Shown piece by piece: positions 19,904-47,989 of a stretch of DNA of 64,000 bases (the first letter of the stretch is position 1; each line of letters begins with the position of its first letter). The stretch spans positions 21,898 through 85,897 of the forward strand of contig JAKAOM010000001.1 in NCBI GenBank assembly GCA_021812145.1. Direction: 5' to 3'. Source of the stretch: Candidatus Micrarchaeota archaeon (GTDB lineage Archaea; Micrarchaeota; Micrarchaeia; Norongarragalinales; UBA8480). The notes under the pieces are model-generated. The model made no database searches and had not been told where the DNA came from. It saw nothing but the letters and a program-made list of their open reading frames with translations. The position numbers and the translations under genes are program-made.

Positions 19904-19905
19904 AA

Positions 19906-20929: not shown

Positions 20930-20966
20930 CATTTTAGTACGCAAGGTTTTTTAAGGATTCATTGAG

Positions 20967-21488: not shown

Positions 21489-21543
21489 TATTTTTCAAAA
21501 ACAAAAATGAATTTTGGGCTAGTCAAAAACTTTAAAAATCAAC

Positions 21544-22278: not shown

Positions 22279-22311
22279 ACTTCAATTAAAATCAGGGAAG
22301 AATAATCAAAT

Positions 22312-26100: not shown

Positions 26101-26371
26101 TTTACTCCAATTGTTTTTTTCTGAAGAGTTTTTTAACTCTTTCGCCGGGCGCGTGATTGTTTAGAAAATCAAGTTCGTTTGATAAATCTGTCTTGTTTTA
26201 ACGAATGAAATTTTATTAATTTAGTGATAATAAAAATCTTGCAATGGAGATATTATACTTTAAGCGTTTTATCAGCAAATTTGAAAAGATTAAAAAGTTA
26301 ATGTGTTTAAACAAGATTACAAATAATAATTTAAGAAGTAAGATATAATTCAAATAAAGGATGGTTATGAT

Positions 26372-26989
26372 ATGAGTTTAAAGAGTTTTATAAAGTTTGC
26401 TATAATACAGCCTAAAACAGCTTTTCAAAACATAGTTATGACTGTGATTGGAGTTTATGGTAGGTATAGCGAGTTGAGTGTTTTTAAAGAAACTTTTTTG
26501 GAAGGAGAATATGCCTGGCTTTATAACCAAATCAATCAGCAGTCTGTAGTTGTTGATATAGGTAGTAATGTTGGCGACACGGCTTTCTTTTTCTTGACGA
26601 ATAATAAAGTGAAAAAACTTATCGGTTTTGAAGTGGATGGTAAAGCGTTCGGAAGGTGCAAGCAGATTTTCACTCGTTTGAATCAAGATCGCGCTTTGTT
26701 TTTAAACAAGAAGGCGGATTTAAGTGTTATGAATAAGATTTTAAAAGATCAAAACTTCCCAATTGCGATTAAGTGCGATATTGAGGGTGGCGAGTACGAT
26801 ATTTTCAGGGAGGGTTTGGATTTGAAGAAGGTTTACGCTATAGAGATGGAGTATCATTACGACGTTCAAAAAATTAAGAGTTTTTTGGAAAGTGAAGGCT
26901 TCACGGTAGAGTTTTCAAGAAAGAATAATAATCCAATTGGTTGGAATATAGGCTTGCTTAAAGCAAAAAGGCCTTTGTTGCATAAATAA
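26372..26989 (+). CDS. FkbM-family SAM-dependent methyltransferase
   Basis: VVDIGSNVGDTAFFF… Methyltransf_21-type motif. Confidence 0.45.
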   Translation: MSLKSFIKFAIIQPKTAFQNIVMTVIGVYGRYSELSVFKETFLEGEYAWLYNQINQQSVVVDIGSNVGDTAFFFLTNNKVKKLIGFEVDGKAFGRCKQIFTRLNQDRALFLNKKADLSVMNKILKDQNFPIAIKCDIEGGEYDIFREGLDLKKVYAIEMEYHYDVQKIKSFLESEGFTVEFSRKNNNPIGWNIGLLKAKRPLLHK

Positions 26990-27097
26990 CCCCCCCTAAT
27001 GCTCTGTTTTTATGCTATTGTTTTAAATTCTTTTTCAGCGTTATTTTTTATTGTTTTAAACGCTTTAAAAGCGTTTTTGGAAAAGGTTTTTTTTGTA

Positions 27098-27808
27098 ATG
27101 GTTTTTCTTTCTGTGGTTATTCCCGCTTTCAACAAGGAAGATTCTATTTCTAAAACTCTTGCTGAAGTTAAGCGTTCTTGCGATTCTTTTAAGGTTTCTT
27201 ATGAAGTTGTTATAGTTGATGATCACTCAACAGATAATACTTATCCTGAGATTGTTAAGACAGTTAAAAATTGGCTTAATTTCAGGGTTTTTAAAAAGGT
27301 TAAGAATGGTGGAAAGGGAGGTGCTTTGAAGGAGGGTTTTTTTAAAGCTAAGGGGGATTTGGTTGCTTTTATCGATGCTGACTTGGATTTACCTCCAAAG
27401 CAGTTGAAAGTTTTCATCGATTTGATGAATGTCTACAATGCCGACGCTATTATTGGAAGCAAGAGGAACAGTCTTTCAAAGGTTGAGTATTCAAGCGTTA
27501 GGAATTTCCTTTCCTGGGGTTACTACAAGCTGGTCAGGGGTTTGTTCAACCTGCGTGTTTCCGACACTCAAGTGGGAATGAAGCTTTTCAAAAGGAAGAA
27601 AATAGAAAAAATAATAAGCAAGGTAAACAGCAGCGGTTTTGCCTTCGATCTTGAGCTTTTGGCCAGAATGAGAAAGGAAAACATGAATATTGGCGAGTCA
27701 CCCATCATTATGAAACATTCTAATTTTGGAAGCAGCGTTAGCGTTTTTGCTATTGCTAAAATGCTGAAGGAGACTTTACTAGTTTACTTCACTGTTTTGA
27801 GAGGTTGA
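27098..27808 (+). CDS. GT2 glycosyltransferase (Dpm1-like)
   Basis: MVFLSVVIPAFNKEDSI…VVIVDDHSTDNT…FIDADLD: GT2 DxD architecture. Confidence 0.6.
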   Translation: MVFLSVVIPAFNKEDSISKTLAEVKRSCDSFKVSYEVVIVDDHSTDNTYPEIVKTVKNWLNFRVFKKVKNGGKGGALKEGFFKAKGDLVAFIDADLDLPPKQLKVFIDLMNVYNADAIIGSKRNSLSKVEYSSVRNFLSWGYYKLVRGLFNLRVSDTQVGMKLFKRKKIEKIISKVNSSGFAFDLELLARMRKENMNIGESPIIMKHSNFGSSVSVFAIAKMLKETLLVYFTVLRG

Positions 27809-27809
27809 T

Positions 27810-28760
27810 TTGATTTTTTTGAAGTTCTCCATTATAATTCCAGTTAAGCGGTTCAATCCAATGCTTGAACAATGTTTGAACGATTGTTTGAAGCAGAAGA
27901 ACGCAGAAGTTATAGTAATTCCTGACGTTGCTTTTAAGTTTGAAGGAGTTAGAGTTTTAACTTTGAAGGGAAGCCCTTCTGACAAGAGGGATTTCGCTGC
28001 TAAAAAAGCTAAAGGTGAGTTCCTTGCTTTCATTGATGATGATGCTTTTCCTGATAATGATTGGCTTAAGAACAGTTTGAAGTATTTCAAAGAAGGAGTG
28101 GTTGCGGTAGCTGGCCCCGCAGTAACACCTGAAGGGGAGGAGTTGAAGAGGAATGCTAGTGGTTTGATTTTTTCATCTTTTATAGGAGGTGGGGGTTTGG
28201 GCTATAGATATGTTAAGGGTTTTTCAAAGGAGGTTGATGATTATCCTAGTGTTAATTTTATAGTTAAGAAGAGCGATTTTGAAGAGGTTGGGGGTTTTGA
28301 CACGAAGTACTGGCCTGGTGAGGATACTATTTTGTGTTTGAAGCTGAAAAAGTTGGGTAGAAAAATTATTTATACCGGCGATGTGGTTGTTTTTCATCAC
28401 AGGAGGCGCTTGTTTGGTGAGCATTTGAAGCAGGTTTTTTCCTACGCTTTGCACAGGGGTTTTTTTGCTAAAAAATATCCTGAAAACTCGCTTAAGGCAA
28501 AGTATTTCATCCCTTCTGTTTTTGTTTTAAGCGTTGTTGCAGGCTTGATTCTTTCTTTATTCTACAGTTGGGCTTTCCTTGCTCTTGCTTTAGTTCTTTT
28601 TGTTTACTTTTTGGTTGTTTTGCTTGAAAGTTTGAAAACCGCTTTTAAAGAAGGAAGTGTTGAATTGTTTTTCTTGTTTTTCGCAGGCGTTATTTTAACC
28701 CATTTTTTTTACGGGGTTGGTTTTATTAAGGGTTTGCTGTCTAAAGATTTAACTCGTTGA
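27810..28760 (+). CDS. GT2 glycosyltransferase with C-terminal TM helices
   Basis: FSIIIPVKRFN…FIDDDAFPDNDWL, C-terminal hydrophobic segments. Confidence 0.55.
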   Translation: MIFLKFSIIIPVKRFNPMLEQCLNDCLKQKNAEVIVIPDVAFKFEGVRVLTLKGSPSDKRDFAAKKAKGEFLAFIDDDAFPDNDWLKNSLKYFKEGVVAVAGPAVTPEGEELKRNASGLIFSSFIGGGGLGYRYVKGFSKEVDDYPSVNFIVKKSDFEEVGGFDTKYWPGEDTILCLKLKKLGRKIIYTGDVVVFHHRRRLFGEHLKQVFSYALHRGFFAKKYPENSLKAKYFIPSVFVLSVVAGLILSLFYSWAFLALALVLFVYFLVVLLESLKTAFKEGSVELFFLFFAGVILTHFFYGVGFIKGLLSKDLTR

Positions 28761-28789
28761 ATGTTTTAAATTGCAGTGTGATTTGAATT

Positions 28790-30256
28790 TTGAAAAGTTT
28801 GAAAGTTTGCATTACCTACCCCCCTATTGATGAAAGTAAGGGTGTGCCGTTGTTGTCTCAGAACCGTCAGTTTCAGTACTTTAATTCTCCTACTTTTATC
28901 TATCCTATGATTCCTGCTTCAGCCGCTACTCTTTTAAAAAAGAATGGTTTTGAAGTGGTTTGGCTTGACGGCATCGCTGAGCGTTTGAAGCCTGAAGCGT
29001 ATTTGAAAATTCTTGAGAAGGAGAAGCCTGACTTGGTTTTTATTGAAACCAAAACTCCTGTGGTGAAAAAGCATTGGTTGTGGATTGAAAAGATTAAGAA
29101 TGCGGTTCCTAAAGTCAAGGTGGTTTTGGCAGGCGATCATGTTACTGCTTTGCCTGAAGAGTCTTTCAGCAATTCAAGCGTTGATTTTATTCTAGCCGGG
29201 GGGGATTTTGATTTTCTTTTGCTTAATTTAGCGAGTTTTTTGACTGGAAAAACAAAAAAATTGGAAGGTGGGATTTGGTTTAGAAAAGGCAAGGTTTTGA
29301 AAAGCAGTGGAATACCGGTTCAGAATCACGATTTGAATTCAATTCCTTTTATCGACCGTGTTTTGACTAAGTGGAGGCTTTACGCTTATGATAATGGTAA
29401 TTTCAAGAAAACTCCTGGAACTTACACAATGGTTGCAAGGGATTGTTGGTGGAGGAAGAACGGTGGCTGCACTTTTTGCAGTTGGACTACTCTCTACAAG
29501 AGTTTTAAATCCAGGACTCCTGAAAGTCTTTTTGAGGAAGTTAAATATCTAGTTGATACTTTTCATTTCAAGGAGATTTTTGACGATTCAGGAAGTTTCC
29601 CTGCTGGGGTGTGGATTGAAAAATTCTGCAATCTTATGATAGAAAGCGGCTACAATAAAAAAGTAACTTTAGGCTGTAATATGCGAGTTAATGCTTTGAA
29701 TCAAAAACAATACAATTTGATGAAGAAAGCTGGGTTTAGGTTCCTGCTTTACGGGGTCGAAAGCGCTAGCCAGAAAACGCTTGACAGAATAAACAAAGGC
29801 ACAAAAGTTGAAGATACGGCTAAAGCTTGCATGATGGCTAAAAAAGCTGGTTTGGAACCTCATTTGACAGTTATGTTTGGATATCCATGGGAGACTAAAA
29901 CAGACATGTATAATACTGTAAAAGAAGTAAGGGAGATTTTCAGGGAGGGTTGGGCGGACACTCTTCAAGCCACTATAGTCATTCCTTACCCCGGAACAAG
30001 GCTTTTTGACGAGTGCAAAAAGAACAAGTGGCTCAAGACAACAAACTGGGATGAATATGATATGAGAGCGCCTGTAATGAAAAGCAAGGCAGGAGATGAA
30101 GAAATAAAAAAATCCGTTCAGGATTGCTATAAAGTTTTCATGACTCCAAGATATGTTTTAAGAAAGATTGTTGGAATTAGGAGCAAGGAGGATTTGAAGT
30201 TTATCAAGAAAGGGGTTAAATCAGTTTTAGGTCATTTGAAAGACTTTTCAGGTTGA
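28790..30256 (+). CDS. B12-binding-domain radical SAM enzyme
   Basis: N-terminal cobalamin-binding Rossmann-like domain, Cys cluster CWWRKNGGCTFC, radical-SAM core YGVESASQKTLDRINKG. Confidence 0.55.
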   Translation: MKSLKVCITYPPIDESKGVPLLSQNRQFQYFNSPTFIYPMIPASAATLLKKNGFEVVWLDGIAERLKPEAYLKILEKEKPDLVFIETKTPVVKKHWLWIEKIKNAVPKVKVVLAGDHVTALPEESFSNSSVDFILAGGDFDFLLLNLASFLTGKTKKLEGGIWFRKGKVLKSSGIPVQNHDLNSIPFIDRVLTKWRLYAYDNGNFKKTPGTYTMVARDCWWRKNGGCTFCSWTTLYKSFKSRTPESLFEEVKYLVDTFHFKEIFDDSGSFPAGVWIEKFCNLMIESGYNKKVTLGCNMRVNALNQKQYNLMKKAGFRFLLYGVESASQKTLDRINKGTKVEDTAKACMMAKKAGLEPHLTVMFGYPWETKTDMYNTVKEVREIFREGWADTLQATIVIPYPGTRLFDECKKNKWLKTTNWDEYDMRAPVMKSKAGDEEIKKSVQDCYKVFMTPRYVLRKIVGIRSKEDLKFIKKGVKSVLGHLKDFSG

Positions 30257-30272
30257 TTTGAGGTAGTTTTAT

Positions 30273-31103
30273 ATGAAAAAAGCTTTGATTACTGGAATAA
30301 ACAAATCAATTGATAAAATTTATTCAAAAAAATGGCTGGATAATGCATTGAAAGAGGATGAATTTATAAATAAACCCTATTTAGAATTTACAAACTATAA
30401 TTCATATTCTGAATTAAATAAATTAGTCAAAATTGTTGAATTAGTTGAGCTCATGCAAATCAAGAAAGGGGTGAAACCAATTAAAATTAATATTCTTGAA
30501 ATAGGTTGTGGAACTGGAAATATTTGTATCCCTTTAGCGTCCAAGGGGTATAATGTTATTGGCATAGACCTGAACAAAAACGCAATTACTAAAGCAAATC
30601 AAATAAAGAAATCTAAAAAGTTAAATAATGTAAATTTTTTCGTTAAAAATACTTCTGAATATTTTTGTAGCGATTCTATTAAAAAATTTGATATTATTAT
30701 TGCAAGTGATATTTTAGAGCATTTACAAAATCCAATTAATATTTGTACATCCATCTTTGATAATTTAGAAGGTGGTGGTTTTTTCATTGTGACAATTCCA
30801 AATGGATTAGGCTTATCTGAATTATTAATAAATAATTTTTCAAAAAACGTAAGAAAGATTTTAGGCGAAGTTGTTGATGACGGTTATAATCATATTCAGA
30901 GATTTACTATAAATAAAATAAACCTATTACTAACTAAGAGTGGTTTTAAACAAATTAAGTTTATTTGTAATATTGATTTTATTACCTTTTTTCCGTTTAT
31001 AAATAGATCTATTCTTGCAAGGATTGATTTTAAGATTAGTAAATTAATACCTACTTTTTTAGCTAATAGGTGGATTTTTTTAGCAATAAAAACTGATGAT
31101 TAA
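30273..31103 (+). CDS. class I SAM-dependent methyltransferase
   Basis: ILEIGCGTGNICIPLASKGYNVIGIDLN motif I/II. Confidence 0.55.
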   Translation: MKKALITGINKSIDKIYSKKWLDNALKEDEFINKPYLEFTNYNSYSELNKLVKIVELVELMQIKKGVKPIKINILEIGCGTGNICIPLASKGYNVIGIDLNKNAITKANQIKKSKKLNNVNFFVKNTSEYFCSDSIKKFDIIIASDILEHLQNPINICTSIFDNLEGGGFFIVTIPNGLGLSELLINNFSKNVRKILGEVVDDGYNHIQRFTINKINLLLTKSGFKQIKFICNIDFITFFPFINRSILARIDFKISKLIPTFLANRWIFLAIKTDD

Positions 31104-31106
31104 AAA

Positions 31107-32306
31107 GTGGCAATATCTAAAAAATTGACTGTTGGTTTCGTTTCTACTTTCACCCCTGAAAGTAATTATTCTCAATTTTTATCAGAGTCTATCTATAAAT
31201 CAAAACAAAATGACCTTAAACTTATAGCCTACGCACCTTTACATGAAAATGTTTCAAATCTTAGGGTTGGTTTAAAAAAGAAAATTTGGAATTATTTTTG
31301 GTATCCACTTCAAATAGCATTTCATTCCTTTAGAGATAATATTGATATAATACACTTCCAGTATGAGTTTAATATGTATGGTTCTATGATTTTTTCTTCT
31401 TTTTTTCCACTTGCGTTACTACTTCAAAAATTAATCAGAAAAAAAGTAGTAACAACAGTTCATGTTGTAGTGTCTCAAAATGAAATTGATGAAGATTTTA
31501 AATCTACATTCAACGCAAGTTTGTTACCTAGTGCGCTAATAAAGACGTGGTTTTACATTAATTATTTTTTTATAGGGTATATATCGGATACAATTATAGT
31601 ACATTCAGAATGTTTTAAGGAAACACTTGAAAGAGAGTATAAAATTGATAAAAACAAAATAATAGTTTTGAATCACGGAATTCCATCTTATAATAATAAA
31701 GATAAAAAGTTAAATTTGTTTAAAAAACTTATACATAATTACAAAAATAAAAAGGTAATATTATCTTTTGGATACATTACAAAAAGAAAGGGCCTGGATT
31801 ATTTAATAAAAGCCTTTGAAAAAATAAACAAAAAATACAATGAGGTTATTTTAATAATTGCAGGTAATGTATTAATACATGAAAAGAAATATATTGAAAC
31901 ACTTAAAAAAAAAATTGTTGATATTCCAAATATCTTAATAATAGATAGATTTCTAACACTTGATGAAATAAAGGCACTATATTCTAATAGTTACATTTCT
32001 GTTTTTCCATATACTTATTCAATCTCTGCAAGTGGAACAACCGCGTTATCATTTGCTTTTTCAGTTCCATTAATTGTTACAAATTTGGGAAGTTTTAAAG
32101 AGGATATTGAAGAGACTGATTGCGGCATACTAGTCAACAAAAAAAACGCCCATGATTTAGAAAAAGCAATTGAGAAATTATTGACAAACAAAAAAGTTTA
32201 TAAAAAAATAAAATATAAAATGAATATTGTCAAAAAAGAAAGATCTTGGAGCAATATCGCAATTCAAACAATAAATTTATATAAGAATAATTTGGATATT
32301 AATTAG
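31107..32306 (+). CDS. GT4-family (GT-B) glycosyltransferase
   Basis: GYITKRKGLDYLIKAF…ILIIAGN…FPYTYSISASGTTALSFAFSVPLIVTNLGSFKE. Confidence 0.6.
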   Translation: MAISKKLTVGFVSTFTPESNYSQFLSESIYKSKQNDLKLIAYAPLHENVSNLRVGLKKKIWNYFWYPLQIAFHSFRDNIDIIHFQYEFNMYGSMIFSSFFPLALLLQKLIRKKVVTTVHVVVSQNEIDEDFKSTFNASLLPSALIKTWFYINYFFIGYISDTIIVHSECFKETLEREYKIDKNKIIVLNHGIPSYNNKDKKLNLFKKLIHNYKNKKVILSFGYITKRKGLDYLIKAFEKINKKYNEVILIIAGNVLIHEKKYIETLKKKIVDIPNILIIDRFLTLDEIKALYSNSYISVFPYTYSISASGTTALSFAFSVPLIVTNLGSFKEDIEETDCGILVNKKNAHDLEKAIEKLLTNKKVYKKIKYKMNIVKKERSWSNIAIQTINLYKNNLDIN

Positions 32307-32346
32307 GCAATAATACCTATTTTACTTAATTTAAAGATGTTTAAAA

Positions 32347-33057
32347 ATGAATTTAAATAAAATATTTATGAATATATATTTGAGAATTAGAAATTTAGAC
32401 AACAATATGTTTAGAGATTTAATTTTTAAAATTTATTCAGATTTGATATATTTACACCACTTTATACTCAATTCTAAATACTTTTATATTGATGGGAAAA
32501 AATATACTTATTTCTCATCACCGTACTATCAAACATTGGCAACGGAAAGATGTATTGAAATACCGTTTGTACTCTCTTTTATAAATAATAATTCAAAAAC
32601 AAATACTCTAGAAATTGGTAACGTCCTATCTAACCATATCTCATTTAAACATGACGTATTAGACAAATATGAAATTGCTAAGGGAGTTATTAATGAGGAT
32701 GTAGCATATTATAATTTCAAAAAAAAGTATGATTTGATATTATCAATTTCTACTTTGGAGCATGTGGGTTTTGATGAACCTGAACATGATGCTGAAAAGG
32801 TTATAATTGCAATCAAAAATTTAATTAATTCATTGGATAAAAAAGGGATTTTAATAATTAGTGTTCCTCTAGGCTATAATCCGGTTATAGATAAACTTAT
32901 ATTAAGAAATACTTTTAAATTTAAAAAATATTTTATGATTAAAACTTCATTTATGAATACTTGGAAACAAGCAAATATTAGCGAAGCTATGAATAAAAAA
33001 TACGGCAGTAAATATCCATTTGCTAATTCTATTGCTTTTTTATTGTACTATAAATAA
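32347..33057 (+). CDS. methyltransferase-like protein
   Basis: LEIGNVLSNH…DLILSISTLEHVGFDE… resembles Methyltransf_11/23 fold but lacks a clear GxGxG. Confidence 0.3.
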   Translation: MNLNKIFMNIYLRIRNLDNNMFRDLIFKIYSDLIYLHHFILNSKYFYIDGKKYTYFSSPYYQTLATERCIEIPFVLSFINNNSKTNTLEIGNVLSNHISFKHDVLDKYEIAKGVINEDVAYYNFKKKYDLILSISTLEHVGFDEPEHDAEKVIIAIKNLINSLDKKGILIISVPLGYNPVIDKLILRNTFKFKKYFMIKTSFMNTWKQANISEAMNKKYGSKYPFANSIAFLLYYK

Positions 33058-35380
33058 GTATATACAAAATACAAAAAATAAATGTTAGTCCAGATATAAT
33101 ATTTCCAATATAAAATAACGATTGTGGAACAAAATAAAGAGTAATTGTAAAACTATTTTTATTAATCATATTTGGATTAATATACCATCCGTTTGCATAT
33201 CCATTTGCAATAAAATGATTATCACTGAGCGGTGAATAAAATAAATATTTAATATCCGTTAAGTCAAAATTTGCAGTTGAACTTACCTCTTTAATTTTTC
33301 CATTATTATACTCTTGCTCAGTTCCAGATTCAATCATGTTATTTTCGATATAAGCGTTCCATTGTGGGTTATATGCTTGGTTTAAAATTAAGAAAAATGG
33401 ATGAGTTGCATTTTCAATTGAGACAATATACTTGGTTGGATTCACTTCTTGAAAAATTATTTTTGGAATGAAACTTTCATTTGTAGAATTTATCATAGGA
33501 ATTTTATCTAAAACCGTTTGATTTTGTAATATAAACACTTGATAATTATCTTCATTATTTTTTAAAGAATTAAAATAATTACTTATATTATAAGTTATAC
33601 TTAATTTATTAGATACATAAATCCTAGGCACAAATGCTTTATTTTCCCATAAGGATATGTTTTCAAATTTTTTTATCAATTGTATATTAGATGCATTATT
33701 TAAGTAATCCTCAACTTTCGTATAATTCCATTCATTTGAATTTGGACTAAATATTGGCATTACGTCCTTTCTAAGTAGAATATATTTAACATTATAAAAT
33801 GCTAGAATATTAGCGATTATATTACTGTCATTTCCTGAATATACTATTTTTTCAATTGTTGAGACTTCAGTATTCGATATTGATTCAAATGAAATTGCAT
33901 TAATTCCTGCGCTTAGAGTTGGATCTCCTCCTTGATCTTCATTTTGATATTGTGTTTTTAAATAAAGTGGAGAGCTGGTCATAGGAAGAGGTAATACTCT
34001 AAATTGTGAACTATCGTTAAGTATATATTTAATTATGTTACTATAACCTGGTGAAATATTGAAAGAGTCAAGTAAAAAAACATTATCTTTAATTTGTGTT
34101 TGCGTACTAAGATTACCTGTCAACCATGGCGAAACCCAGATTAACAAACCAATCATTAGTACTATTTCTACAAGAATTATTTTAGATTTTCTTTTAGTCT
34201 CTATAATTTTTGAAATTATAAAAAAAGTTCCAAGTCCAATTATAATAGATATTGTAAAAGCAAGTAATACTAAAATGTGTTGTGGGCTTCTAAATAAAAC
34301 CATTAATGGAATATTTTCATAAATCCAAATCCTTAGATTGCCAATTAGAGTTATAGAAGTTGACATGAATAATGAAATAAGGAATAAAAAAATCCAAAAT
34401 AAACTTTTGGTTTTTTTGTTGGTATATAAAAAAAATATTGAAATTATTATTATACTGTATGCGCTAATAAACCATATTAATTGAAAATTTGGATTAATAA
34501 GATATTTAAAAAAATCTGTAAAGTAACCTAAACCAGCAAAAGCGTCTTGAATTGAAGGAATATTATTTGTTATTGTTGAAATTAATAGCGTATTATCTAA
34601 TGAAATACTTTGTTGTAGTGTTTGTGGTATAAGTATAATCCAGTACATATTTAAAAGAAAAAATATAATTATACTTTTTACAATATTTTTGTAAATCGTT
34701 TTTATTTTTTTTGTGAATAAAACATAAAGAACAAATACTAATGTTATTAAAAATAAATTCTGAAGTGAAGAACTTATTATCGTCATAGTAATTGCAAATA
34801 AGAGAACGTCAATAAAGTTAGGTTTGTCTGAACATACTTTTATTAGAAAATAAAAAGCCAGTGGAAAAAATGCATACGTAATAAACTGCGTAGTTGCACC
34901 TCCTATTATTTCATTGAAAAGGAAGGGAGATAATGAATAAAAAACAGCACCAAAAAATTGAGCAAAGAGTTTATAAGAATTGTTTTTAACTTCAAAGTCT
35001 TCACTAATAATTTTTCCAATTAGATAAAACATGGTAATGCCTGACAATAGTATTGTAATAAATACTAACAGTTTTGATATGATTTCTCCATTAAATCCTA
35101 AATAACCCGTACTAGTATATACCATTATAAGTGGAATAAAACTCGCTCCCAGTGGATTAAAATAACCAAGACCAGAATCAACCCATAAATAAGGTGTTTG
35201 AATAAATATTGCCCGTATTTCTTCATTTAGCGGTGGAATTGACCAATCCCAATGATGCCCTAATGTTCCATTATTTAAAACTATACCTCGCAGTACAAAA
35301 AAAGATATAAAAATAAAAAATACAATTGGAAAAATTAATTTTAAAAATTGTTTAAATTTTTTTATATTAGCTATTTCCAA
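33029..35380 (-). CDS. large polytopic membrane protein (possible GT-C-like glycosyltransferase) with C-terminal soluble domain
   Basis: 783 aa, >12 predicted TM helices in first 430 aa, Asn-rich extracytoplasmic C-terminal domain, final TM. Confidence 0.3.
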   Translation of the reverse strand: MEIANIKKFKQFLKLIFPIVFFIFISFFVLRGIVLNNGTLGHHWDWSIPPLNEEIRAIFIQTPYLWVDSGLGYFNPLGASFIPLIMVYTSTGYLGFNGEIISKLLVFITILLSGITMFYLIGKIISEDFEVKNNSYKLFAQFFGAVFYSLSPFLFNEIIGGATTQFITYAFFPLAFYFLIKVCSDKPNFIDVLLFAITMTIISSSLQNLFLITLVFVLYVLFTKKIKTIYKNIVKSIIIFFLLNMYWIILIPQTLQQSISLDNTLLISTITNNIPSIQDAFAGLGYFTDFFKYLINPNFQLIWFISAYSIIIISIFFLYTNKKTKSLFWIFLFLISLFMSTSITLIGNLRIWIYENIPLMVLFRSPQHILVLLAFTISIIIGLGTFFIISKIIETKRKSKIILVEIVLMIGLLIWVSPWLTGNLSTQTQIKDNVFLLDSFNISPGYSNIIKYILNDSSQFRVLPLPMTSSPLYLKTQYQNEDQGGDPTLSAGINAISFESISNTEVSTIEKIVYSGNDSNIIANILAFYNVKYILLRKDVMPIFSPNSNEWNYTKVEDYLNNASNIQLIKKFENISLWENKAFVPRIYVSNKLSITYNISNYFNSLKNNEDNYQVFILQNQTVLDKIPMINSTNESFIPKIIFQEVNPTKYIVSIENATHPFFLILNQAYNPQWNAYIENNMIESGTEQEYNNGKIKEVSSTANFDLTDIKYLFYSPLSDNHFIANGYANGWYINPNMINKNSFTITLYFVPQSLFYIGNIISGLTFIFCILYILIYSTIKKQ

Positions 35381-35396
35381 TCAATTTTCACCTATT

Positions 35397-36098
35397 TTAA
35401 TTATCCTTATTTGTTTTTAATTTACAAAGAAAGATAATCCCTCTTGAAAATAATGATGGCATTGAATAAGTCAGTTCATCCCACACCCTTTTTGGAATCA
35501 ATGATAATCCTTTTTCAATTTTATCACTAACTCCAAGATGGATCCAATACCTTCTACTTATTATTTTAAAATGTTTTTCTATAAACTCATTATCTTGTTT
35601 TATTGTTGGAAAGTGAAGGTGATAATCCGCAGCAAAACCTGTTGCGTCTACGCTATTTCCAAACACCATTTTTATCCTATGATATATGGTGCTCTCATTA
35701 GGTAAAGATATAAGAACCACTCCCTTTTTGTTTAATAATTTTTTTGTTTGCAATATCAACTTTTCAGGATCTTTTAAATGTTCTAAAATTTCAGCTAAAA
35801 TTATAATATCAAATTTTTCATTAAGCTTAATTTTTTCATTTTCTAAATTTACCTTAAAAACTTTAAAAGCACCTCTTTTCTTTGCAATTTTAAGCGCCTT
35901 TTTATCAAAATCCACTCCATAATACTTAATGTTTTTATGACCAAAAATTTTTATTGTATCTCCCATATAGCAACCAATATCTAAAACTTTTACATCTTTT
36001 TTTATAAATGGGTTTAAAAGAGACTTGAAAATTTTAAATCTCTCTTTTGCGTATTTATCATTCAATATATTTTTATATACCATTTTATTGTAATTCAT
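35397..36098 (-). CDS. class I SAM-dependent methyltransferase
   Basis: VKVLDIGCYMGDTIKIF…IIILAEILEHL. Confidence 0.5.
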   Translation of the reverse strand: MNYNKMVYKNILNDKYAKERFKIFKSLLNPFIKKDVKVLDIGCYMGDTIKIFGHKNIKYYGVDFDKKALKIAKKRGAFKVFKVNLENEKIKLNEKFDIIILAEILEHLKDPEKLILQTKKLLNKKGVVLISLPNESTIYHRIKMVFGNSVDATGFAADYHLHFPTIKQDNEFIEKHFKIISRRYWIHLGVSDKIEKGLSLIPKRVWDELTYSMPSLFSRGIIFLCKLKTNKDN

Positions 36099-36102
36099 TA
36101 TT

Positions 36103-37131
36103 TTATCTCTTTATTTGATTTTTAAATAAATTTTCTGTTAATCCAACAATTGTGCCTCTTATCCCTTTCAGATAGCTTATTTGTTTTGTACTTATAAATT
36201 TATATACTAAAAATAAATTTAAAAATATAAGGTATGAAAAAAATCTTATTGATTTATCAATTGTATTCAGTTTAATGTTAATAAAATAAAAATTAATAAA
36301 ATTTAATGTTCTTTCATATGAATTTGACCTATTTGCAAACACTCCGTTTTGATCTACAAGGTGTTTAACTACTGCTTTTGGATTAAAAATTATCTTATAT
36401 CCTTCCCTTATTATTTTAAACGAAACGTCTGCTTCTGAGTAGTCACCAATCCCTAGATATTTTCTGTCAAAATAACCTATCTTTATTAAAATATGTCTTC
36501 TTATAGCCATGTTGCAGGCTTCATGATGATCTACGTTAATTGACTTTTTAAATTTACAATTTTCTTTATAGTTAGATCCGACAGAAAAAGCTCCGCTCCT
36601 AAAAAATTTTCCAATGCTTTTTTCTTTACCCTCAAGAAAATAATTAAAATATATTTTGCCTAAAATATGCCAAAAAATATTTCCATTTTGCAGTTTTTTT
36701 TGAAAATAAAACAAATCTCTTTTATTTTTTAAATTTTCGGGTATTATTGTTGGACCCGTTACTCCCCCTATCTTTTTCGATTCATTAAATGTTTTTACAA
36801 TTTCATTAATCCATTCTTTGTCTGCGACTATATCATCATCCGTTCTTACTATAATTTCTCCTTTTGAAACTAATATTCCTTCGTTTATTGCATTTACTAA
36901 TCCTTTTTCCTTCTGTTTTATTATTTTAATTTTTAATTCTTTATGATTCTTTATTACTTTTTTTGTGTTATTTGTATCTCCTCCTTCTACTATAACGATT
37001 TCAAAATTTTTAAACGTTTCTTTATTCAATGATATAAGGCATCTTTCTAAACTTTGTTCTCTATTCATAGTGGGTATTATTATTGAAACTTTAGGTATAT
37101 TTTTATTCATCTTTAACCCAACCTCTAGCAT
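36103..37131 (-). CDS. GT2 glycosyltransferase
   Basis: PKVSIIIPTMNREQSLERCL…VIVEGGDTNN…DDD. Confidence 0.55.
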   Translation of the reverse strand: MLEVGLKMNKNIPKVSIIIPTMNREQSLERCLISLNKETFKNFEIVIVEGGDTNNTKKVIKNHKELKIKIIKQKEKGLVNAINEGILVSKGEIIVRTDDDIVADKEWINEIVKTFNESKKIGGVTGPTIIPENLKNKRDLFYFQKKLQNGNIFWHILGKIYFNYFLEGKEKSIGKFFRSGAFSVGSNYKENCKFKKSINVDHHEACNMAIRRHILIKIGYFDRKYLGIGDYSEADVSFKIIREGYKIIFNPKAVVKHLVDQNGVFANRSNSYERTLNFINFYFINIKLNTIDKSIRFFSYLIFLNLFLVYKFISTKQISYLKGIRGTIVGLTENLFKNQIKR

Positions 37132-38161
37132 TGCCTATTTTTTTTGTTCCTTTAAGTTTGTTTAAAAAATACGATATTTCTCTTTTTTTAATTATCTTTG
37201 GTAAAATTTCACTATCGCTTACTACTCTATTTTTTTGTATTCTTCTTCTTTTTTCTAGTATCCTTTTTAAATTAGTTAGATTCCAAACCAATCCTAAAAT
37301 TATCCATTTTGAACTTTTGAATTTTCTTTTTGAAAAAAGAAAAGTTGCAATTCCAAACCATAAAAAAATATGAATTGTTAAAATTTTAATTAGGTTTTTA
37401 AATTCTAAATTTTTAATCAAAGTTTGTACATAATTTTTTGCACCATGAAATTTAACAAAATAATTTATGTCATTTTTTAGAATAATTGAGCTAGTTCCAA
37501 ATCTATGATAAATTATTGAGTTTGGTATCAGCATAACTTTAGATCCTTTAAGCCAAATTCTCCAACATAGGTCGCTCTCTTCAACATATATAAAATAATC
37601 ATCATCAAACCCGTTTATTTCATCTAACGCGTCTTTTCTTGCGATCATACCTGCAGATTTTGCAGCAAAAATCTCCTTAATTTCATCATATTGCCCATTA
37701 TCATTTTCCTTTCCAGCTTCAACAATATTAACTAAAAATCCATTTTGACCTATATATTCTCCTACAGAATCTATTTTGTTTGTTTTACTTATAATAAGTT
37801 TTAACTGTCCAGCTCCTACATTAGGATTATTTTCAAGAAATTTTACCGCGTTTTTTAACCACATTGAAGTTACAGTTGTGTCATTATCTAAAAAAACTAC
37901 GTACTTTCCTTTTGCTTCTTTGATTCCTTCATTTCTTGCGGATGAGGGGCCAATATTTTTGTCATTTTGAATAATTTTTAATTTTAATTTTTTAATTGAT
38001 TTTTTAATATACTCAACGCTTCCGTCAGTTGAACCATTATCTATAACAATAACCTCAAAATTAGTGTATTTTGTAGTATATAATGATTCTAAGCATTCTT
38101 TTAAATAAATTTTACCATTATAATTTACTATTACAACAGAAACAAGTGGTTCTTTATTCAT
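37103..38161 (-). CDS. GT2 glycosyltransferase
   Basis: PLVSVVIVNYNGKIYLKECLESL…VIVIDNGSTDGS…FLDNDT. Confidence 0.6.
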   Translation of the reverse strand: MNKEPLVSVVIVNYNGKIYLKECLESLYTTKYTNFEVIVIDNGSTDGSVEYIKKSIKKLKLKIIQNDKNIGPSSARNEGIKEAKGKYVVFLDNDTTVTSMWLKNAVKFLENNPNVGAGQLKLIISKTNKIDSVGEYIGQNGFLVNIVEAGKENDNGQYDEIKEIFAAKSAGMIARKDALDEINGFDDDYFIYVEESDLCWRIWLKGSKVMLIPNSIIYHRFGTSSIILKNDINYFVKFHGAKNYVQTLIKNLEFKNLIKILTIHIFLWFGIATFLFSKRKFKSSKWIILGLVWNLTNLKRILEKRRRIQKNRVVSDSEILPKIIKKREISYFLNKLKGTKKIGNARGWVKDE

Positions 38162-38318
38162 TTATATCTCTCACATACTTTTTTTAATAAAGTTGTTTTT
38201 TAAAAGTTTATCCTGTTTTTATCTGATGATATTGCTTTATATTTTTGTAATGAAAAGCTTTTTAAAACTCTTTTTAGGATATGTTTTGTTAAAATGGTTG
38301 AGCTTTCAATTTCAAGCT

Positions 38319-39695
38319 TTAAGCTTTTTGCTGGAAGGCATTGGAAGTGGTTTTTGGTTTAGTTTTGTATTGTAGTATTTGTTGTATTGCCATGCCTGCT
38401 AGAGCGCTTACTGAGATGAATACTAGAACTGCTGAGCGTATGTAGGTTCTGAGTGTGGGGCTTATTTGGTATAGGTAGTAGGTGATGTTGTTGAATTGGA
38501 CTCCAAGGACTTTTGGTTGGGGGCCTATTGACATTATTACCCCTAGGATTGCGAGGAGGATGAAAAAGATGATTGCTTGGTTGTTGAGGTTGGTTTTTTG
38601 TTTTTGGGTTTTTTTGTAAATCCAATAAATTATAAGAAGGGTTGCGAGGATTAGGCTGGTGTAGCTTATGTATATTTCTTGTTCCACTTCGCTTGCAGTT
38701 CCGTTAATGTAGCTTCCTAGGTTGTTGATTATTGTGTTTTTAAATAATGGGTTTTGATAGTATGGAATTAAATAGTAAGCTAGGCTTGTGGTGCTTCCTG
38801 TTTGTACGTTGGCGTAGCTTCTGGTTATTGGTGGTCCTTGTGTTAGGTAATTTGTGATTAAGGGGTAGTTGAATATTGTGAATAGTATTAGGAAGGTGGT
38901 TATTGCTATTAGCGTTTTTTTGATTTTTTCTTTGTTTATTTGGAGATCTTTTTTGAGTACTTGGTAAATTATTTTTGCTATTATATATGTTACGGTTGCT
39001 GCGAGCATGAAGGCTGCGTAGTAGTAGTCTGTGAAGAAGTTGAGAGCTAATAAGGCTCCGCAGAGGATGGCGTTGGCGGTGTTTGGTTTTTCGTCTAGTT
39101 TGAATAGAAATAGAATATAGAGGGGCATCCATTGCATTTGTGCTAGAGTAGTGTCTAGTTGGATTCTTATGAAATGATATGGTGCGAACGCATATATTAT
39201 TCCTGAGATAAAACTTGATGTGTTATTTTTTGTGAAGTGTTTGGTTAATATAAACATTGTTATTGCAGATAGAGGTATACTGGAGAGCATTATGAGATTG
39301 TATACTAAAATTTGGTTGCCTAATATACTGAAAAGAAATGACATAGCTGGAATGTATGGAGACCATAATACTGTTGAAATTCCTCCTTGTGATAGGGCTA
39401 TCATTGTGTTGTTTATAATATTTAAGCCGTGGGTTATAGCGTAGTTGTCCCACCACATGAGGTATAATCCGCCTATTGGGTCGCTGTATTGATAGAAGTA
39501 TTTCCCATAGACTTCTGTAGTTAGGTTTAATATTAATGGCCAAGTTGTTATTATTGCTATTAGGCAGTAAGTGATTAATGCACTTATTTCAGTTTGATAT
39601 TGTAATGTTTTTTCTGTTATTTTTTTTATTATTGTTTGTCTAGTCTGTTGTGTTTTTTTTTGGATATTTATACCTACTTTGTTTTTTTTTTCCAT
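38319..39695 (-). CDS. polytopic membrane protein (possible glycan polymerase/GT-C-like)
   Basis: 458 aa, ~10 TM helices; start overlaps divergent ORF at 39636. Confidence 0.3.
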   Translation of the reverse strand: MEKKNKVGINIQKKTQQTRQTIIKKITEKTLQYQTEISALITYCLIAIITTWPLILNLTTEVYGKYFYQYSDPIGGLYLMWWDNYAITHGLNIINNTMIALSQGGISTVLWSPYIPAMSFLFSILGNQILVYNLIMLSSIPLSAITMFILTKHFTKNNTSSFISGIIYAFAPYHFIRIQLDTTLAQMQWMPLYILFLFKLDEKPNTANAILCGALLALNFFTDYYYAAFMLAATVTYIIAKIIYQVLKKDLQINKEKIKKTLIAITTFLILFTIFNYPLITNYLTQGPPITRSYANVQTGSTTSLAYYLIPYYQNPLFKNTIINNLGSYINGTASEVEQEIYISYTSLILATLLIIYWIYKKTQKQKTNLNNQAIIFFILLAILGVIMSIGPQPKVLGVQFNNITYYLYQISPTLRTYIRSAVLVFISVSALAGMAIQQILQYKTKPKTTSNAFQQKA

Positions 39696-39722
39696 TTTGT
39701 TGGTTTATTTTTGTTTTTGGTA

Positions 39723-40565
39723 ATGGTTTTAAATGCTTTCTTTGTTTATTTACCTAGCATGGATTGGTTTTCCCGATGGTTTGAACGTTTTCCTGCTTCT
39801 AATTTTGTTTTGTTTTGTGGTTTGTTGCTGATTTTTTCCCTTCCTTTTTTGATTGTTTCTGGTTTGAATGCGGAGAGGGTGGCGGTTTTTGCTTATTTGT
39901 TCTTGTTTTTGGGCGTTTTGATGCGTTTGGTGGAGTTGAAGGCGGGTTGGTTTAATCGTTTTTTTACTGGTATTTGGATTTTTTTAGTTGGCTTTTTTAG
40001 TTTTTTCTCAGGAGTTTGGAGTGTGTTTAAGTCTGAGTTGGACGCGTGGTGGAAGTGGGGTTTTGTTTTCGTATTGCTATTCATGCTGTTGGTCGAGTAT
40101 GCTGTTCCTTTGGGTTTTGTTTCCAGCGTTGGAAGTGTGCCTGATGTTTATCAGTGGCTTGCAAATCAAACAGGACTTTTTACAGTTGCGGAGTATCCGA
40201 TGATTCCTGAGGTTTATTTCTATCCTTTTAATGTTAGCGATCCTTATTATGTTTTTTATAGTCAGTTCACTGGTAAGCGCTTGTTTAACGGCGCTACGGG
40301 GGGTGTGGGTAAGTTTGTGGAGCAGGACGTTCAGAATCTTTCCAGTCCTGAAACCCCTTCAATTTTGGCTTGGTACAACGTTTCTTATGTTATTGTTCAC
40401 TATCCTGTGAATTCTTACGCAGTTTATTCTGGATTGCACTTGGTGAAGGTTTTTCCTGACGCTAGCGTTTACAGTGTTACAGCTTCCCCTTCGCTGGTTT
40501 GGGGTAGCGAGTTGGCACAATTGAAGGAGAGTTTAAGTGCTAATCAGAGCAATATTGTTTCTTGA
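39723..40565 (+). CDS. membrane protein with C-terminal soluble domain (start uncertain: 39636/39723/39759)
   Basis: N-terminal TM helices; ORF-track start would overlap the divergent gene by 60 nt. Confidence 0.3.
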   Translation: MVLNAFFVYLPSMDWFSRWFERFPASNFVLFCGLLLIFSLPFLIVSGLNAERVAVFAYLFLFLGVLMRLVELKAGWFNRFFTGIWIFLVGFFSFFSGVWSVFKSELDAWWKWGFVFVLLFMLLVEYAVPLGFVSSVGSVPDVYQWLANQTGLFTVAEYPMIPEVYFYPFNVSDPYYVFYSQFTGKRLFNGATGGVGKFVEQDVQNLSSPETPSILAWYNVSYVIVHYPVNSYAVYSGLHLVKVFPDASVYSVTASPSLVWGSELAQLKESLSANQSNIVS

Positions 40566-40569
40566 AAGA

Positions 40570-41703
40570 CTAGCATTCTATTCCGTTGAAGGGTATTTTT
40601 TGTTGTTTGTTGTCTTTTTTTTTAGCTAGTACCTTTAGTATTGCCTTCATAACGCATTCTGGTGTTATTTGGTCGAAGTCTTCTATGCTTTGTAGTTTTT
40701 CTATATCTTTTCTTTGAGTGGTGATGGTTAAGTTGGCGTATTTTTTTATGTATATTGCCGCTCCTCTTTCCGTGTAGGGGTAGAAGTTGTATATTTTTCC
40801 GCTTGTGAATATTGATACTGCTGGGCAGCCTGTTGCGGCAGCTATGTGGGTTATTCCTGTATCCATCCCTACGTATATTTTTGCTAGGCTTGCGATAGCT
40901 GCTAGAGTTTCCAGGTTTGTTTTTGGCAGTATGATCGGCTTGTTTTCAGTTTGTTGTGTTATTTCCTGTATTGTTTTTTCGTTTTCTGGGCTTGTAGGTA
41001 TTATTATCTCCAGTTTGGTTTTTTCGTGAATTTGGTCAATTAGGCTTGCGAAGTTTTCCACTGGCCATGTCTTTCTGGTTTTAGATGTTGGGAACAGTAT
41101 TGCAAAGTTTTTTTTCACGCCTGCCTTTTTGAGTATTTGCTTTGCGTTTTTTATGTCTGTTTTGCTGCTTTTTATTTTTGGCTTTGTTATTGGCGCTTTT
41201 ATTCCTTCTTTTTGTAGTGTTTGGCTTGCGTATTCATTGAAGTGGGTTGGCTTCCAGTTCTTTTTTATTAATTTGTCTTCTCTCAGACTTGAGCTTAAGT
41301 CCACCCGTTTTTGACAGGTGGGCAGCAATAGCAGTGAGAGGATTATTGAAGGGTAGTCTGGCTCGTAGAAGTTTACTATTAGTTGGGGTTTGAATTTTAT
41401 TATTTTTAGGACTGTTTCGATTTTTTCTATGTTTGTTTTTGGCAGGGGCATTGTTTCCATTTTTTTTGGGGCTAGGGGGATTAAATCTTTGGGTGCTATC
41501 AGAAGTATTCTTGATTTTGGGTAGTTCTTCTTTATTGACTCCATGGCAGGCATTGTTACTATAAAGTCGCCTATGGCCGGGTCTGAAATTATTGCTATTT
41601 TTTTTGGAGTTTGTGGTTTTATTATTTTAGCGCGGGCGTCGTATATCTTTTGAGTTGCGTATGACAGTATAAGCGCTCCAGCGTGTTCTATGTTGAATGC
41701 CAT
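40570..41703 (-). CDS. GT9-family glycosyltransferase (heptosyltransferase-like), paralog of 18339..19481
   Basis: KKIAIISDPAIGDFIVTMPAMESI N-term; GMDTGITHIAAATGCPAVSIFT; C-terminal …IPFNGIEC as in the paralog. Confidence 0.6.
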   Translation of the reverse strand: MAFNIEHAGALILSYATQKIYDARAKIIKPQTPKKIAIISDPAIGDFIVTMPAMESIKKNYPKSRILLIAPKDLIPLAPKKMETMPLPKTNIEKIETVLKIIKFKPQLIVNFYEPDYPSIILSLLLLPTCQKRVDLSSSLREDKLIKKNWKPTHFNEYASQTLQKEGIKAPITKPKIKSSKTDIKNAKQILKKAGVKKNFAILFPTSKTRKTWPVENFASLIDQIHEKTKLEIIIPTSPENEKTIQEITQQTENKPIILPKTNLETLAAIASLAKIYVGMDTGITHIAAATGCPAVSIFTSGKIYNFYPYTERGAAIYIKKYANLTITTQRKDIEKLQSIEDFDQITPECVMKAILKVLAKKKDNKQQKIPFNGIEC

Positions 41704-42808: not shown

Positions 42809-43180
42809 TTATAGTATGACTCCAAGTATTTTTAGCAATATGAGAAGGCCTACTCCCAGCAAGCCTAGGACTGCGGTTATGATTATGTTGATTAAATCTA
42901 ATGGGATAGTGAAGCCTAGAAAGTTAAGTATTAGAAGTGCTGCAATGCCTAGAATAGTGTTTACTATGTATTTTTTGAGTTTGATTATGATTAATATTGC
43001 TATTATTATAAGGATAAGGGCTACCAGGATAGCGGTTAGGTTGGCTGCAGCTAGCTGGGTTATTGTTTGATTTGCGGTTTGCGCTAGCGTGGTGTTTTGC
43101 AGGGTGGCTGTCAGGTTTGTTATGTTAGCGTTCATCTGTTGCTTGTTTTTGTGTGTTTTGGGTTTTTTAATTCTTTTCAT
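42809..43180 (-). CDS. small membrane protein with sequon-rich N-terminal segment
   Basis: NITNLTATLQNTTLAQTANQTITQLAAANLTA then TM helices. Confidence 0.3.
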   Translation of the reverse strand: MKRIKKPKTHKNKQQMNANITNLTATLQNTTLAQTANQTITQLAAANLTAILVALILIIIAILIIIKLKKYIVNTILGIAALLILNFLGFTIPLDLINIIITAVLGLLGVGLLILLKILGVIL

Positions 43181-47960: not shown

Positions 47961-47989
47961 TTTTTTTGGTATTATGTTTGTTTTAAATT

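Follow-up and report, generated by a model that had tools for sequence, protein, structure and literature searches.

A conserved GT2-GT2-radical SAM cassette beside a compositionally foreign low-GC block in a probable surface-glycan locus of a Micrarchaeota archaeon

The N-glycosylation of archaeal surface proteins has its paradigm in the Agl system of Haloferax volcanii (AglJ, AglG, AglE, AglP, AglD and AglS), which includes a low-GC second cluster. In the GtrA/GtrB/GtrC and CsbB/YfhO systems, a family 2 glycosyltransferase (GT2) makes a polyprenyl-phosphate-linked sugar, a flippase moves the sugar and a GT-C-fold glycosyltransferase transfers it outside. Most characterised class B radical S-adenosylmethionine (rSAM) enzymes are methylases, and BchE, HpnJ and OxsB are listed as non-methylating members of the class (PMC12931638). 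HpnJ and the calditol synthase (Cds) are proposed to be ring-contracting rSAM enzymes acting on lipid-linked sugars (PMC13459092). We analysed a stretch of 64,000 nucleotides (the window) from a Candidatus Micrarchaeota archaeon (assembly GCA_021812145.1, contig JAKAOM010000001.1, positions 21,898 to 85,897), and within it the region 26372-41703, which carries glycosyltransferases, methyltransferases, polytopic membrane proteins and an rSAM enzyme with a B12-binding domain. A sequence-only reading had described this region as a 15-kb glycan biosynthesis island of 14 genes. Open reading frame (ORF) calling and Pfam and NCBIfam scans recovered 14/14 genes in the order and with the families given there, and they bear out the reading of the region as a cluster for glycan biosynthesis that includes methyltransferase genes and one for a class-B-type rSAM enzyme. 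On the other hand, the 15 kb are not one island. The region consists of three parts: a native-GC left part (26372-30256, GC 0.35-0.39), a low-GC middle (30273-38161) and a native right part (GC 0.36-0.39). Only the middle 7.9 kb is foreign, and the left and right parts are near-native in GC and conserved in relatives. The region is probably a lipid-carrier-based surface-glycan locus, in which native flanks have been conserved and the middle exchanged.

We found that the rSAM gene belongs to a conserved three-gene cassette together with the two GT2 genes upstream of it (GT2a and GT2b). The rSAM protein has more than 6,000 homologs, and the best 120, at 57-82% identity, include proteins of Methanoperedens, Methanolobus and 'bacterium' entries. 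In a one-genome-per-species collection, rSAM relatives occur at 423 places, of which the best 80 were compared; the cassette locus set comprises 81 loci (42 archaeal and 39 bacterial), across which rSAM is 51-63% identical in both domains. In 73 of the 76 loci with enough flanking sequence, the gene immediately upstream of rSAM, in the same orientation, is a GT2b homolog (32-48% identity). A GT2a homolog (31-46% identity) is found upstream in 61/71 such loci, and both GT2s are present in 61/71. Among the proteins of the region, only GT2a and GT2b travel with rSAM in tblastn searches, and the low-GC genes are not linked to it. Within the best 80, the archaeal carriers are Bathyarchaeia, Nitrososphaerales, Methanoperedens, Micrarchaeia and Woesearchaeota. 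The bacterial carriers are Candidate Phyla Radiation (CPR) groups, Omnitrophota, Planctomycetia, Acidobacteriota, Chloroflexota and Actinomycetota, and Ferrimicrobium acidiphilum is a cultured carrier.

The setting of the cassette in other genomes is that of polysaccharide-type loci. In 25 loci the gene immediately upstream of the cassette encodes a Wzx-type flippase, and in Ferrimicrobium the flippase and GT2a are fused. Clustering of the neighbouring ORFs placed another GT2 just downstream in 36 loci, and sugar epimerases/dehydratases, nucleotidyltransferases and family 4 glycosyltransferases (GT4s) are also among the neighbours. A class I methyltransferase cluster is found near the cassette in 20/81 loci. 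The sequence-only reading had grouped the rSAM gene with a methyltransferase-rich block, and this grouping did not hold: the gene is part of a separate GT2-GT2-rSAM cassette that mostly occurs in loci without methyltransferases. In the literature searched, we found no description of this cassette, which is not proof of novelty.

We then investigated the rSAM protein itself. It has the layout of a B12-binding domain (PF02310, 34.0 bits, cutoff 32.1) and a Radical_SAM domain (PF04055, 59.4 bits). Its cysteine triad, whose absence would have counted against the sequence-only reading, is in place: all 41 family members compared have C219, C227 and C230, which align with the canonical CxxxCxxC of HpnJ, BchE and an enzyme of Lawsonia intracellularis. 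Their spacing is atypical, being Cx7Cx2C in the window as against CxxxCxxC, and the insertion between the first and second cysteines varies within the family, from Cx4 in a Methanoperedens protein through the Cx7 of the window to Cx12 in a Gottesmanbacteria protein. The public gene model of this enzyme (449 aa, P0001) starts 39 codons late, and a TTG codon at 28790 restores the N-terminus; the residues ahead of the 449-aa model start, encoded at 28790-28906, include the invariant Y10, P11, P12, G18 and QNRQF at 24-28. The best NCBIfam match is HpnJ (TIGR03471), aligned nearly full-length at 158.4 bits against an equivalog cutoff of 577.6, and the second-best family is BchE, a cyclase (124 bits). 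The methylase families scored as follows (bits/cutoff): HpnR 61/650, PhpK 59/600, rSAM_ocin_1 75/282, MJ_0865/QCMT 53/360 and Sden_1168 45.5/575. Thus, the protein lies below the cutoff of every named class B C- or P-methyltransferase family scored and also below the HpnJ cutoff, with 28% identity to annotated HpnJ proteins. Its identity to its nearest named relatives, HpnJ and BchE, is 24-28%; the nearest relatives on annotated plasmids are the Lawsonia enzyme (27.9%), HpnJ (28%) and BchE (25%). The Lawsonia relative is encoded on plasmid NC_008012.1 (27 kb, locus L087, record positions 10106-23437) in a glycan-type cluster with three GT2s, GalE, two DUF2304 proteins, a SIS-domain protein, two rSAM proteins and five class I methyltransferases.

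The sequence-only reading had proposed a heavily O- and possibly C-methylated sugar polymer, with the rSAM protein as a class B enzyme that methylates an unactivated carbon of the sugar. The Pfam domains of the protein and the prevalence of methylases among the characterised class B enzymes (PMC12931638) are consistent with this proposal, as are the two firm and two marginal SAM methyltransferase genes of the same cluster and the five class I methyltransferases around the 28%-identical Lawsonia relative. However, the methylase families (HpnR 61, rSAM_ocin_1 75, PhpK 59, MJ_0865 53) score far under HpnJ (158) and BchE (124), the constant partners of rSAM are two GT2s rather than methyltransferases, which cluster near it in only 20 of the 81 loci, and the firm methyltransferases sit in the foreign block and were acquired separately from rSAM. 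We regard such a polymer as possible but doubtful.

Structure comparison bears on the same point from both sides. An AlphaFold2 model of the rSAM protein (mean predicted local distance difference test score, pLDDT, 87.9) was searched with Foldseek and aligned over about 500 columns with the methylase MgmA/QCMT, TsrM, OxsB, CysS and TokK at TM-scores of 0.61-0.71. The best E-value belongs to MgmA/QCMT, and TsrM, CysS and TokK match too, in agreement with methylation. In contrast, the highest TM-scores belong to non-methylases, the aminoglycoside 1,2-diol dehydratase AprD4 (0.73) and the ring-contracting OxsB (0.71). With methylases, a ring-contracting enzyme and a dehydratase all among the predicted structural neighbours, the fold search does not appear to separate methylase from non-methylase chemistry. 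AprD4 shares the domain layout and works without cobalamin. A review sets it aside from the enzymes that depend on B12 and calls it 'unrelated' (PMC12931638). Since AprD4 shares the layout and is set apart in this way, cobalamin binding cannot be assumed from the fold. Sugar C-methylation by the window enzyme thus found no specific support: HpnJ and BchE outscore the methylase families and the structural neighbours are mixed. It is not the indicated reading, because HpnJ and BchE, the nearest named relatives, are not methylases, and we give it rather less than an even chance.

The methyltransferase genes of the region proved fewer than the 'four to five' of the sequence-only reading. Two are firm (MT1 and MT2) and two are marginal. 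MT2 is a distant paralog of MT1 (32% identity in tblastn), with a 57-nt inverted match at 81%. The first gene of the region, read earlier as an FkbM methyltransferase, reached 22.1 bits against PF05050 (cutoff 22.7, residues 125-177) and 33.7 bits against TIGR01444 (cutoff 37.7, residues 59-102). When it was aligned with a bona fide FkbM methyltransferase from a relative, only motif I matched (E 0.002), so its assignment stays marginal. Its homologs were found beside the cassette in 0/80 other loci, and the gene is lineage-specific. The second marginal protein, between GT4 and the 783-aa membrane protein, had no NCBIfam match and no PDB sequence match.

GT2a is closest in sequence to the polyprenyl-phosphate sugar synthases of the dolichyl-phosphate mannose synthase (DPMS)/GtrB/ArnC type. 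Its nearest solved structures are the Pyrococcus furiosus Dol-P-Man synthase 5mlz (E 1.8e-15), GtrB 5ekp and ArnC 9hwj, and it has partial NCBIfam matches to PgfS, ArnC, AglJ and a Dol-P hexose transferase. GT2b, a membrane-anchored GT2, has partial matches to MftF (92 bits) and AglG and carries three C-terminal hydrophobic segments (at residues 230, 249 and 282). Alternatively, the cassette might alter a membrane-lipid head group, the GT2 glycosylating a lipid and the rSAM enzyme contracting the sugar ring to a cyclitol, as in HpnI/HpnJ or the calditol synthase of Sulfolobales. This would account for HpnJ being the best-scoring named family, nearly full-length at 28% identity, for the same GT2-rSAM adjacency in hpnI and hpnJ and for the membrane segments of GT2b, and ring contraction of lipid-linked sugars is the chemistry proposed for HpnJ and Cds (PMC13459092). 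However, the HpnJ score of 158 is far from the cutoff of 577.6 and the HpnI model returned no match with GT2b (threshold E<=0.001). Neither an HpnK-type deacetylase nor hopanoid genes (hpnI, hpnK, hpnH and shc) were found among the 50 ORFs of 120 aa or more in the window, and elsewhere the cassette accompanies Wzx flippases, nucleotide-sugar enzymes, glycosyltransferases and GT-C proteins, a polysaccharide or glycan context. A head-group function is therefore unlikely in our view, and a glycan function of the cassette is preferred.

One further protein recurs with the cassette. The 783-aa polytopic membrane protein of the low-GC block had no Pfam hit by itself, and a sequence-only PDB search was unproductive. 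However, a profile of its family (16 sequences) matched mycobacterial AftD (6w98/6wbx) with an E-value of 7e-8, and a Foldseek search with its AlphaFold2 model (pLDDT 82.5; predicted template modelling score 0.86) returned AftD first (E 5e-13), followed by STT3/AglB, AftA and ArnT. The protein has 12 hydrophobic segments. All 16 homologs share D45, which belongs to an HxWDWSIP motif close behind the first helix (residues 2-34) and may be the catalytic residue. Thus, the protein is an AftD-like GT-C-fold glycosyltransferase, with a polytopic membrane domain and an extracytoplasmic domain. PF11847 (AftD/DUF3367) was not matched by the protein itself and is carried only by its distant homolog P0136. 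With a hidden Markov model of the family, AftD-like GT-C genes were found within 10 kb of the cassette in 30/42 archaeal as against 6/39 bacterial loci, and in 27 of the 32 archaeal loci with at least 8 kb of downstream sequence, figures that stand without a control frequency near unrelated GT2 genes. The archaeal cassette and AftD-like GT-C genes recur together. We tentatively suggest that the trio forms a pathway found across the two domains, in which rSAM would turn a polyprenyl-phosphate-linked sugar into an unusual donor (for example a ring-contracted, C-alkylated or deoxygenated sugar) and AftD-like GT-C proteins would install that sugar in the envelope. The analogy with decaprenyl-phosphate-arabinose, whose donor is made on the lipid, is a functional one.

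We then investigated the low-GC block, which the sequence-only reading had found to differ in composition from the flanking DNA, consistent with horizontal acquisition. The foreign composition was borne out. Its seven genes have GC 0.238-0.261 and GC at third codon positions (GC3) of 0.16-0.21, as against a mean GC of 0.407 (standard deviation 0.037, minimum 0.325) and a mean GC3 of 0.413 in the other 43 ORFs of the window, corresponding to z-scores of -3.9 to -4.5 for GC and -3.9 to -4.9 for GC3. Codon positions 1 and 2 are also shifted, not synonymous sites alone, and the share of K+N+I+F+Y rises to 0.42-0.48. The GC step of 13-15 points coincides with the gene ends at 30256/30273 and 38161/38319, being confined to the 16-nt gap after the rSAM gene and the 157-nt gap before the gene at 38319. 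MT1, the first low-GC gene, begins 16 nt past the rSAM stop codon with GC 0.245 and GC3 0.18. Window positions 18799-34438, which include the left junction, recur with 100% identity in an independent assembly from another run (Logan SRR13206618), and the right-flank gene was found on three contigs with mostly the same neighbour genes. Because these assemblies support the junctions, the GC step is not the product of an assembly chimera.

Relatives keep the flanks and carry different low-GC genes at this position. Three relative contigs (L085, L086 and L091) have flanking genes 58-81% identical to those of the window. On L085 (rSAM 77% identical), rSAM is followed by an FkbM methyltransferase, a GT4 and a GT4-like gene at GC 0.27-0.32, this GT4 being 58% identical to the window GT4 in the same position. 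On L086 (rSAM 81% identical), a GT2 fragment and a GT2 follow, with GC 0.25-0.33. On the other side of the slot, L091 retains homologs of the 458-aa and 309-aa membrane proteins of the right part and of a 359-aa membrane protein beyond them. It has no GT9 between the 359-aa and 309-aa homologs, and beyond the 458-aa homolog it carries an unrelated low-GC ORF in the place of GT2d. Among 50 cassette loci, the 6 kb downstream of rSAM average 3.3 GC points below the cassette and are at least 5 points lower in 16, while the upstream side is not lower.

It might be argued that the block is native and that relaxed selection or low expression let its glycan-tailoring genes drift towards AT where they stand. 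The glycan genes on either side of the block are likewise somewhat lower in GC than the window average (0.373 vs 0.407), a further GT2 at 47268-47960 has a GC of 0.325, the DNA downstream of the cassette is mildly GC-poor in many lineages, and the block lacks an integrase, att-like repeats and an adjacent tRNA gene. However, drift would hardly produce a 13-15-point step exactly at gene ends that reaches codon positions 1 and 2 and the amino-acid composition, and relatives whose flanking genes are 58-81% identical hold different genes in the slot. We thus consider native drift very improbable and horizontal acquisition the better account. As for its route, the block sits within two convergent, tightly packed operons with gaps of 3-40 nt, whose ends share a 29-nt overlap at 33029-33057. 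A mobile-element origin was considered and rejected. A Pfam scan of the window ORFs found no integrase, transposase or other mobility gene at the block, no tRNA gene was found adjoining it, and a search for flanking direct or inverted repeats returned only AT-rich chance matches and the MT1/MT2 paralogy. Recombination between the flanks fits and mobile-element insertion does not, because there are no att-like repeats, integrases or tRNA genes and the block is spliced into operons. Like the variable centres of O-antigen and capsule loci, the block appears to be a cassette that was exchanged by recombination between its conserved flanks.

The native right part begins with two divergent genes for membrane proteins of 458 and 309 aa, which look like a YfhO/DUF6311-type GT-C protein split in two. 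Homologs of the 458-aa protein carry PF19830 (DUF6311) or PF09586 (YfhO) and are 578-766 aa long, that is, 120-300 residues longer. Residues 151-288 of the 309-aa protein match columns 446-591 of the 458-aa family profile (hhalign probability 98.3%, E 1.5e-14), where the family has a C-terminal extracytoplasmic domain that the 458-aa protein lacks. A sequence-only PDB search with that profile gave nothing useful. The divergent pair is also present on L091 (58% identity for the 458-aa protein and 50% for the 309-aa protein). The database model of the 309-aa gene begins near 39723. The GT9 gene that closes the region was correctly recognised by the sequence-only reading as a paralog; the window has another GT9 at 18339-19481, and the two proteins are 42% identical.

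Taken as a lipid-carrier-based surface-glycan locus, the region would probably work as follows. GT2a would charge dolichyl or polyprenyl phosphate with a sugar, and GT2b and rSAM would elaborate this lipid-linked sugar on the cytoplasmic face; the rSAM step could be a C-methylation, a ring contraction or rearrangement, or a dehydration. The variable part of the glycan would be assembled by the cytoplasmic GT2, GT4 and GT9 enzymes and O-methylated by the SAM methyltransferases. Once lipid-linked sugars have been flipped, the AftD-like and YfhO-like GT-C proteins would pass them to acceptors at the surface, likely the adjacent S-layer protein and sequon-rich secreted proteins. The candidate acceptors have 16 sequons (S-layer protein), 30 NxS/T sites (a 402-aa secreted protein) and 14 (a 244-aa protein). 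Exchange of the low-GC block by recombination would diversify the surface glycan.

Several points weigh against this scheme. Neither an STT3/AglB oligosaccharyltransferase, which may be elsewhere on the contig, nor a flippase (Polysacc_synt) is among the 50 window ORFs, and the export and transfer steps therefore depend on the GT-C assignments. GT2a has no C-terminal hydrophobic segment, unlike DPMS and GtrB with their membrane helices; its sole hydrophobic stretch is N-terminal and may lie upstream of the true start, the homologs being about 256-259 aa long. The AftD-like gene of the window is inside the foreign block, and its link to the cassette is a statistical one drawn from other genomes. 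The variability of the slot is seen on three short relative contigs (3.2-4.8 kb), none of which spans the whole slot. The donor lineage of the block is not identifiable: among 5.8 billion proteins, the closest homolog of the 783-aa protein, identical sequences aside, reaches 33-34% identity, and an exact look-up of GT2d returned nothing on record. Finally, we infer the acceptor, the donor sugar and the lipid carrier rather than observe them.

Table 1. Genes of the region 26372-41703, in window coordinates
Gene	Coordinates	Strand	Basis and remarks
FkbM-family methyltransferase, probable (marginal)	26372-26989	+	First gene of the + strand operon; GC 0.35
GT2a, first cassette member	26999-27808	+	PF00535, 104 bits
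GT2b, second cassette member	27810-28760	+	PF00535, 50 bits; PF13632
rSAM enzyme with B12-binding domain, third cassette member	28790-30256	+	PF02310, PF04055
MT1, class I SAM methyltransferase (firm), low-GC block	30273-31103	+	Methyltransf_31, 74 bits; Methyltransf_23, 70.7 bits
GT4 glycosyltransferase, low-GC block	31107-32306	+	PF00534, 80 bits; GC 0.254
Methyltransferase-like protein (possible, weak), low-GC block	32347-33057	+	Methyltransf_23, E 0.0025, 18 bits; GC 0.238
AftD-like GT-C, 783 aa, low-GC block	33029-35380	-	Family profile and fold match to AftD
MT2, class I SAM methyltransferase (firm), low-GC block	35397-36098	-	Methyltransf_23, 66 bits
GT2c, low-GC block	36103-37131	-	PF00535, 96 bits; GC 0.253
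GT2d, final low-GC gene	37103-38161	-	PF00535, 113 bits; GC 0.261, GC3 0.16
YfhO/DUF6311-like GT-C membrane core (putative), 458 aa, native GC	38319-39695	-	PMT_2 weak, E 0.002; conserved right flank
Membrane protein with putative C-terminal domain of the split GT-C, 309 aa	39636-40565	+	hhalign
GT9 (heptosyltransferase-family)	40570-41703	-	PF01075, 98 bits

The rest of the window is archaeal in character, encoding a CDP-archaeol synthase and an S_layer_C surface protein at a background GC of about 0.41, and it lies on the 335,887-bp metagenomic contig k141_240580 of European Nucleotide Archive record ERZ27237364. The glycan machinery extends past 41703, because a further GT2 (GC 0.325), an Alg9/PMT_2-type GT-C protein and a GT4 are encoded at 47268-49588 and 56842-57948. 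Between the GT9 and S-layer genes lie the N/T/Q-rich 359-aa membrane protein (41718-42797, - strand; nine sequons, 45% identical on L091) and a BofA-like small membrane protein (42809-43180, - strand; 31 bits). The 402-aa secreted protein (46055-47263, + strand) has 7.5 NxS/T sites per 100 aa and no Pfam hit, and the 244-aa protein (21544-22278, + strand) is a chagasin-type peptidase inhibitor of the I42 family.

Other genes of the window are also of note. A FlaI/VirB11-type secretion ATPase (T2SSE; 22312-26100, - strand; 1,262 aa as a whole) contains an intein with a LAGLIDADG homing endonuclease. Two 102-nt tRNA genes (16657-16758 and 18158-18259, + strand), which were detected by Rfam and not by ARAGORN, differ by one base; in both, the variable arm is long and an intron is probable. 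Between these direct repeats lies a single AAA_14/DUF4143 ATPase gene (16786-18057, - strand), and it looks as if the tRNA gene was duplicated by an insertion. An SLT lytic transglycosylase domain protein (13630-14280, + strand; 111 bits) has an N-terminal hydrophobic segment; an enzyme type that cleaves peptidoglycan would fit a lifestyle involving bacteria. A RelA/SpoT-family protein (60373-61698, - strand) has HD_4 and RelA_SpoT domains and a weak TGS domain, and to our knowledge (p)ppGpp enzymes of this type are uncommon in archaea.

If the cassette does make a radical-modified lipid-linked sugar, it would add a new step to envelope glycan biosynthesis and a new class B-type rSAM reaction on a carbohydrate, carried out by an enzyme with an unusual cluster-binding motif. 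In uncultured groups such as Bathyarchaeia, Thaumarchaeota, CPR and DPANN, the cassette would then also serve as a genomic marker for a sugar not yet known. Carriers with very small genomes, which are not expected to make cobalamin, would have a cofactor-dependent modification of their envelope. Since there are cultured carriers such as Ferrimicrobium acidiphilum, the function of the cassette is directly testable.

Compared with the described systems, the locus resembles the Agl clusters in combining a GT2 of the Dol-P sugar synthase type, further GT2 and GT4 enzymes, SAM methyltransferases and predicted GT-C proteins that would use lipid-linked sugars outside the membrane. Part of it is likewise low in GC, and it lies beside an S-layer gene and genes for sequon-rich surface proteins. 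It differs in that the window lacks AglB/STT3 and a flippase, and the NCBIfam Agl scores are all far under the equivalog cutoffs. We know of no Agl cluster with a B12 rSAM enzyme, an AftD-like GT-C protein or a GT9.

The HpnI-HpnJ(-HpnK) system, which comes closest to the cassette in its proposed working, shares with it a GT2 gene adjoining a B12-domain rSAM gene, and HpnJ, which gave the best family score, is also of class B type and proposed to rearrange a lipid-linked sugar rather than to methylate it (PMC13459092). However, HpnJ has the canonical CxxxCxxC, whereas the family of the window enzyme has Cx4 to Cx12 before CxxC. The cassette also has two GT2s, comes without deacetylase or hopanoid genes, and is found in archaea and CPR bacteria in a polysaccharide-locus context. 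With AftD, the 783-aa protein shares the GT-C membrane core and the extracytoplasmic domain, and a polyprenyl-phosphate sugar donor modified on the lipid is proposed here as for decaprenyl-phosphate-arabinose. On the other hand, sequence identity to AftD is 10-11%, the protein is 783 aa long as against about 1,400 aa, and it has neither the carbohydrate-binding modules of AftD nor its acyl-carrier-protein partner.

The GtrA/GtrB/GtrC and CsbB/YfhO systems are approached through GT2a, which is closest to GtrB, DPMS and ArnC, and through the YfhO and DUF6311 domains in homologs of the 458-aa protein. In contrast to these systems, the YfhO-like protein of the window appears to be split, no GtrA-type or Wzx flippase is encoded in the window, and an rSAM enzyme is part of the conserved unit. 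With bacterial O-antigen and capsule loci, the region shares a low-GC variable centre between conserved flanks. Low-GC, strain-variable glycan loci are familiar in bacteria and archaea, and this island is a further example in a poorly known archaeal lineage. What is less expected is that its rSAM gene is one of three that form a tightly conserved unit, which is present in both domains and has no assigned function.

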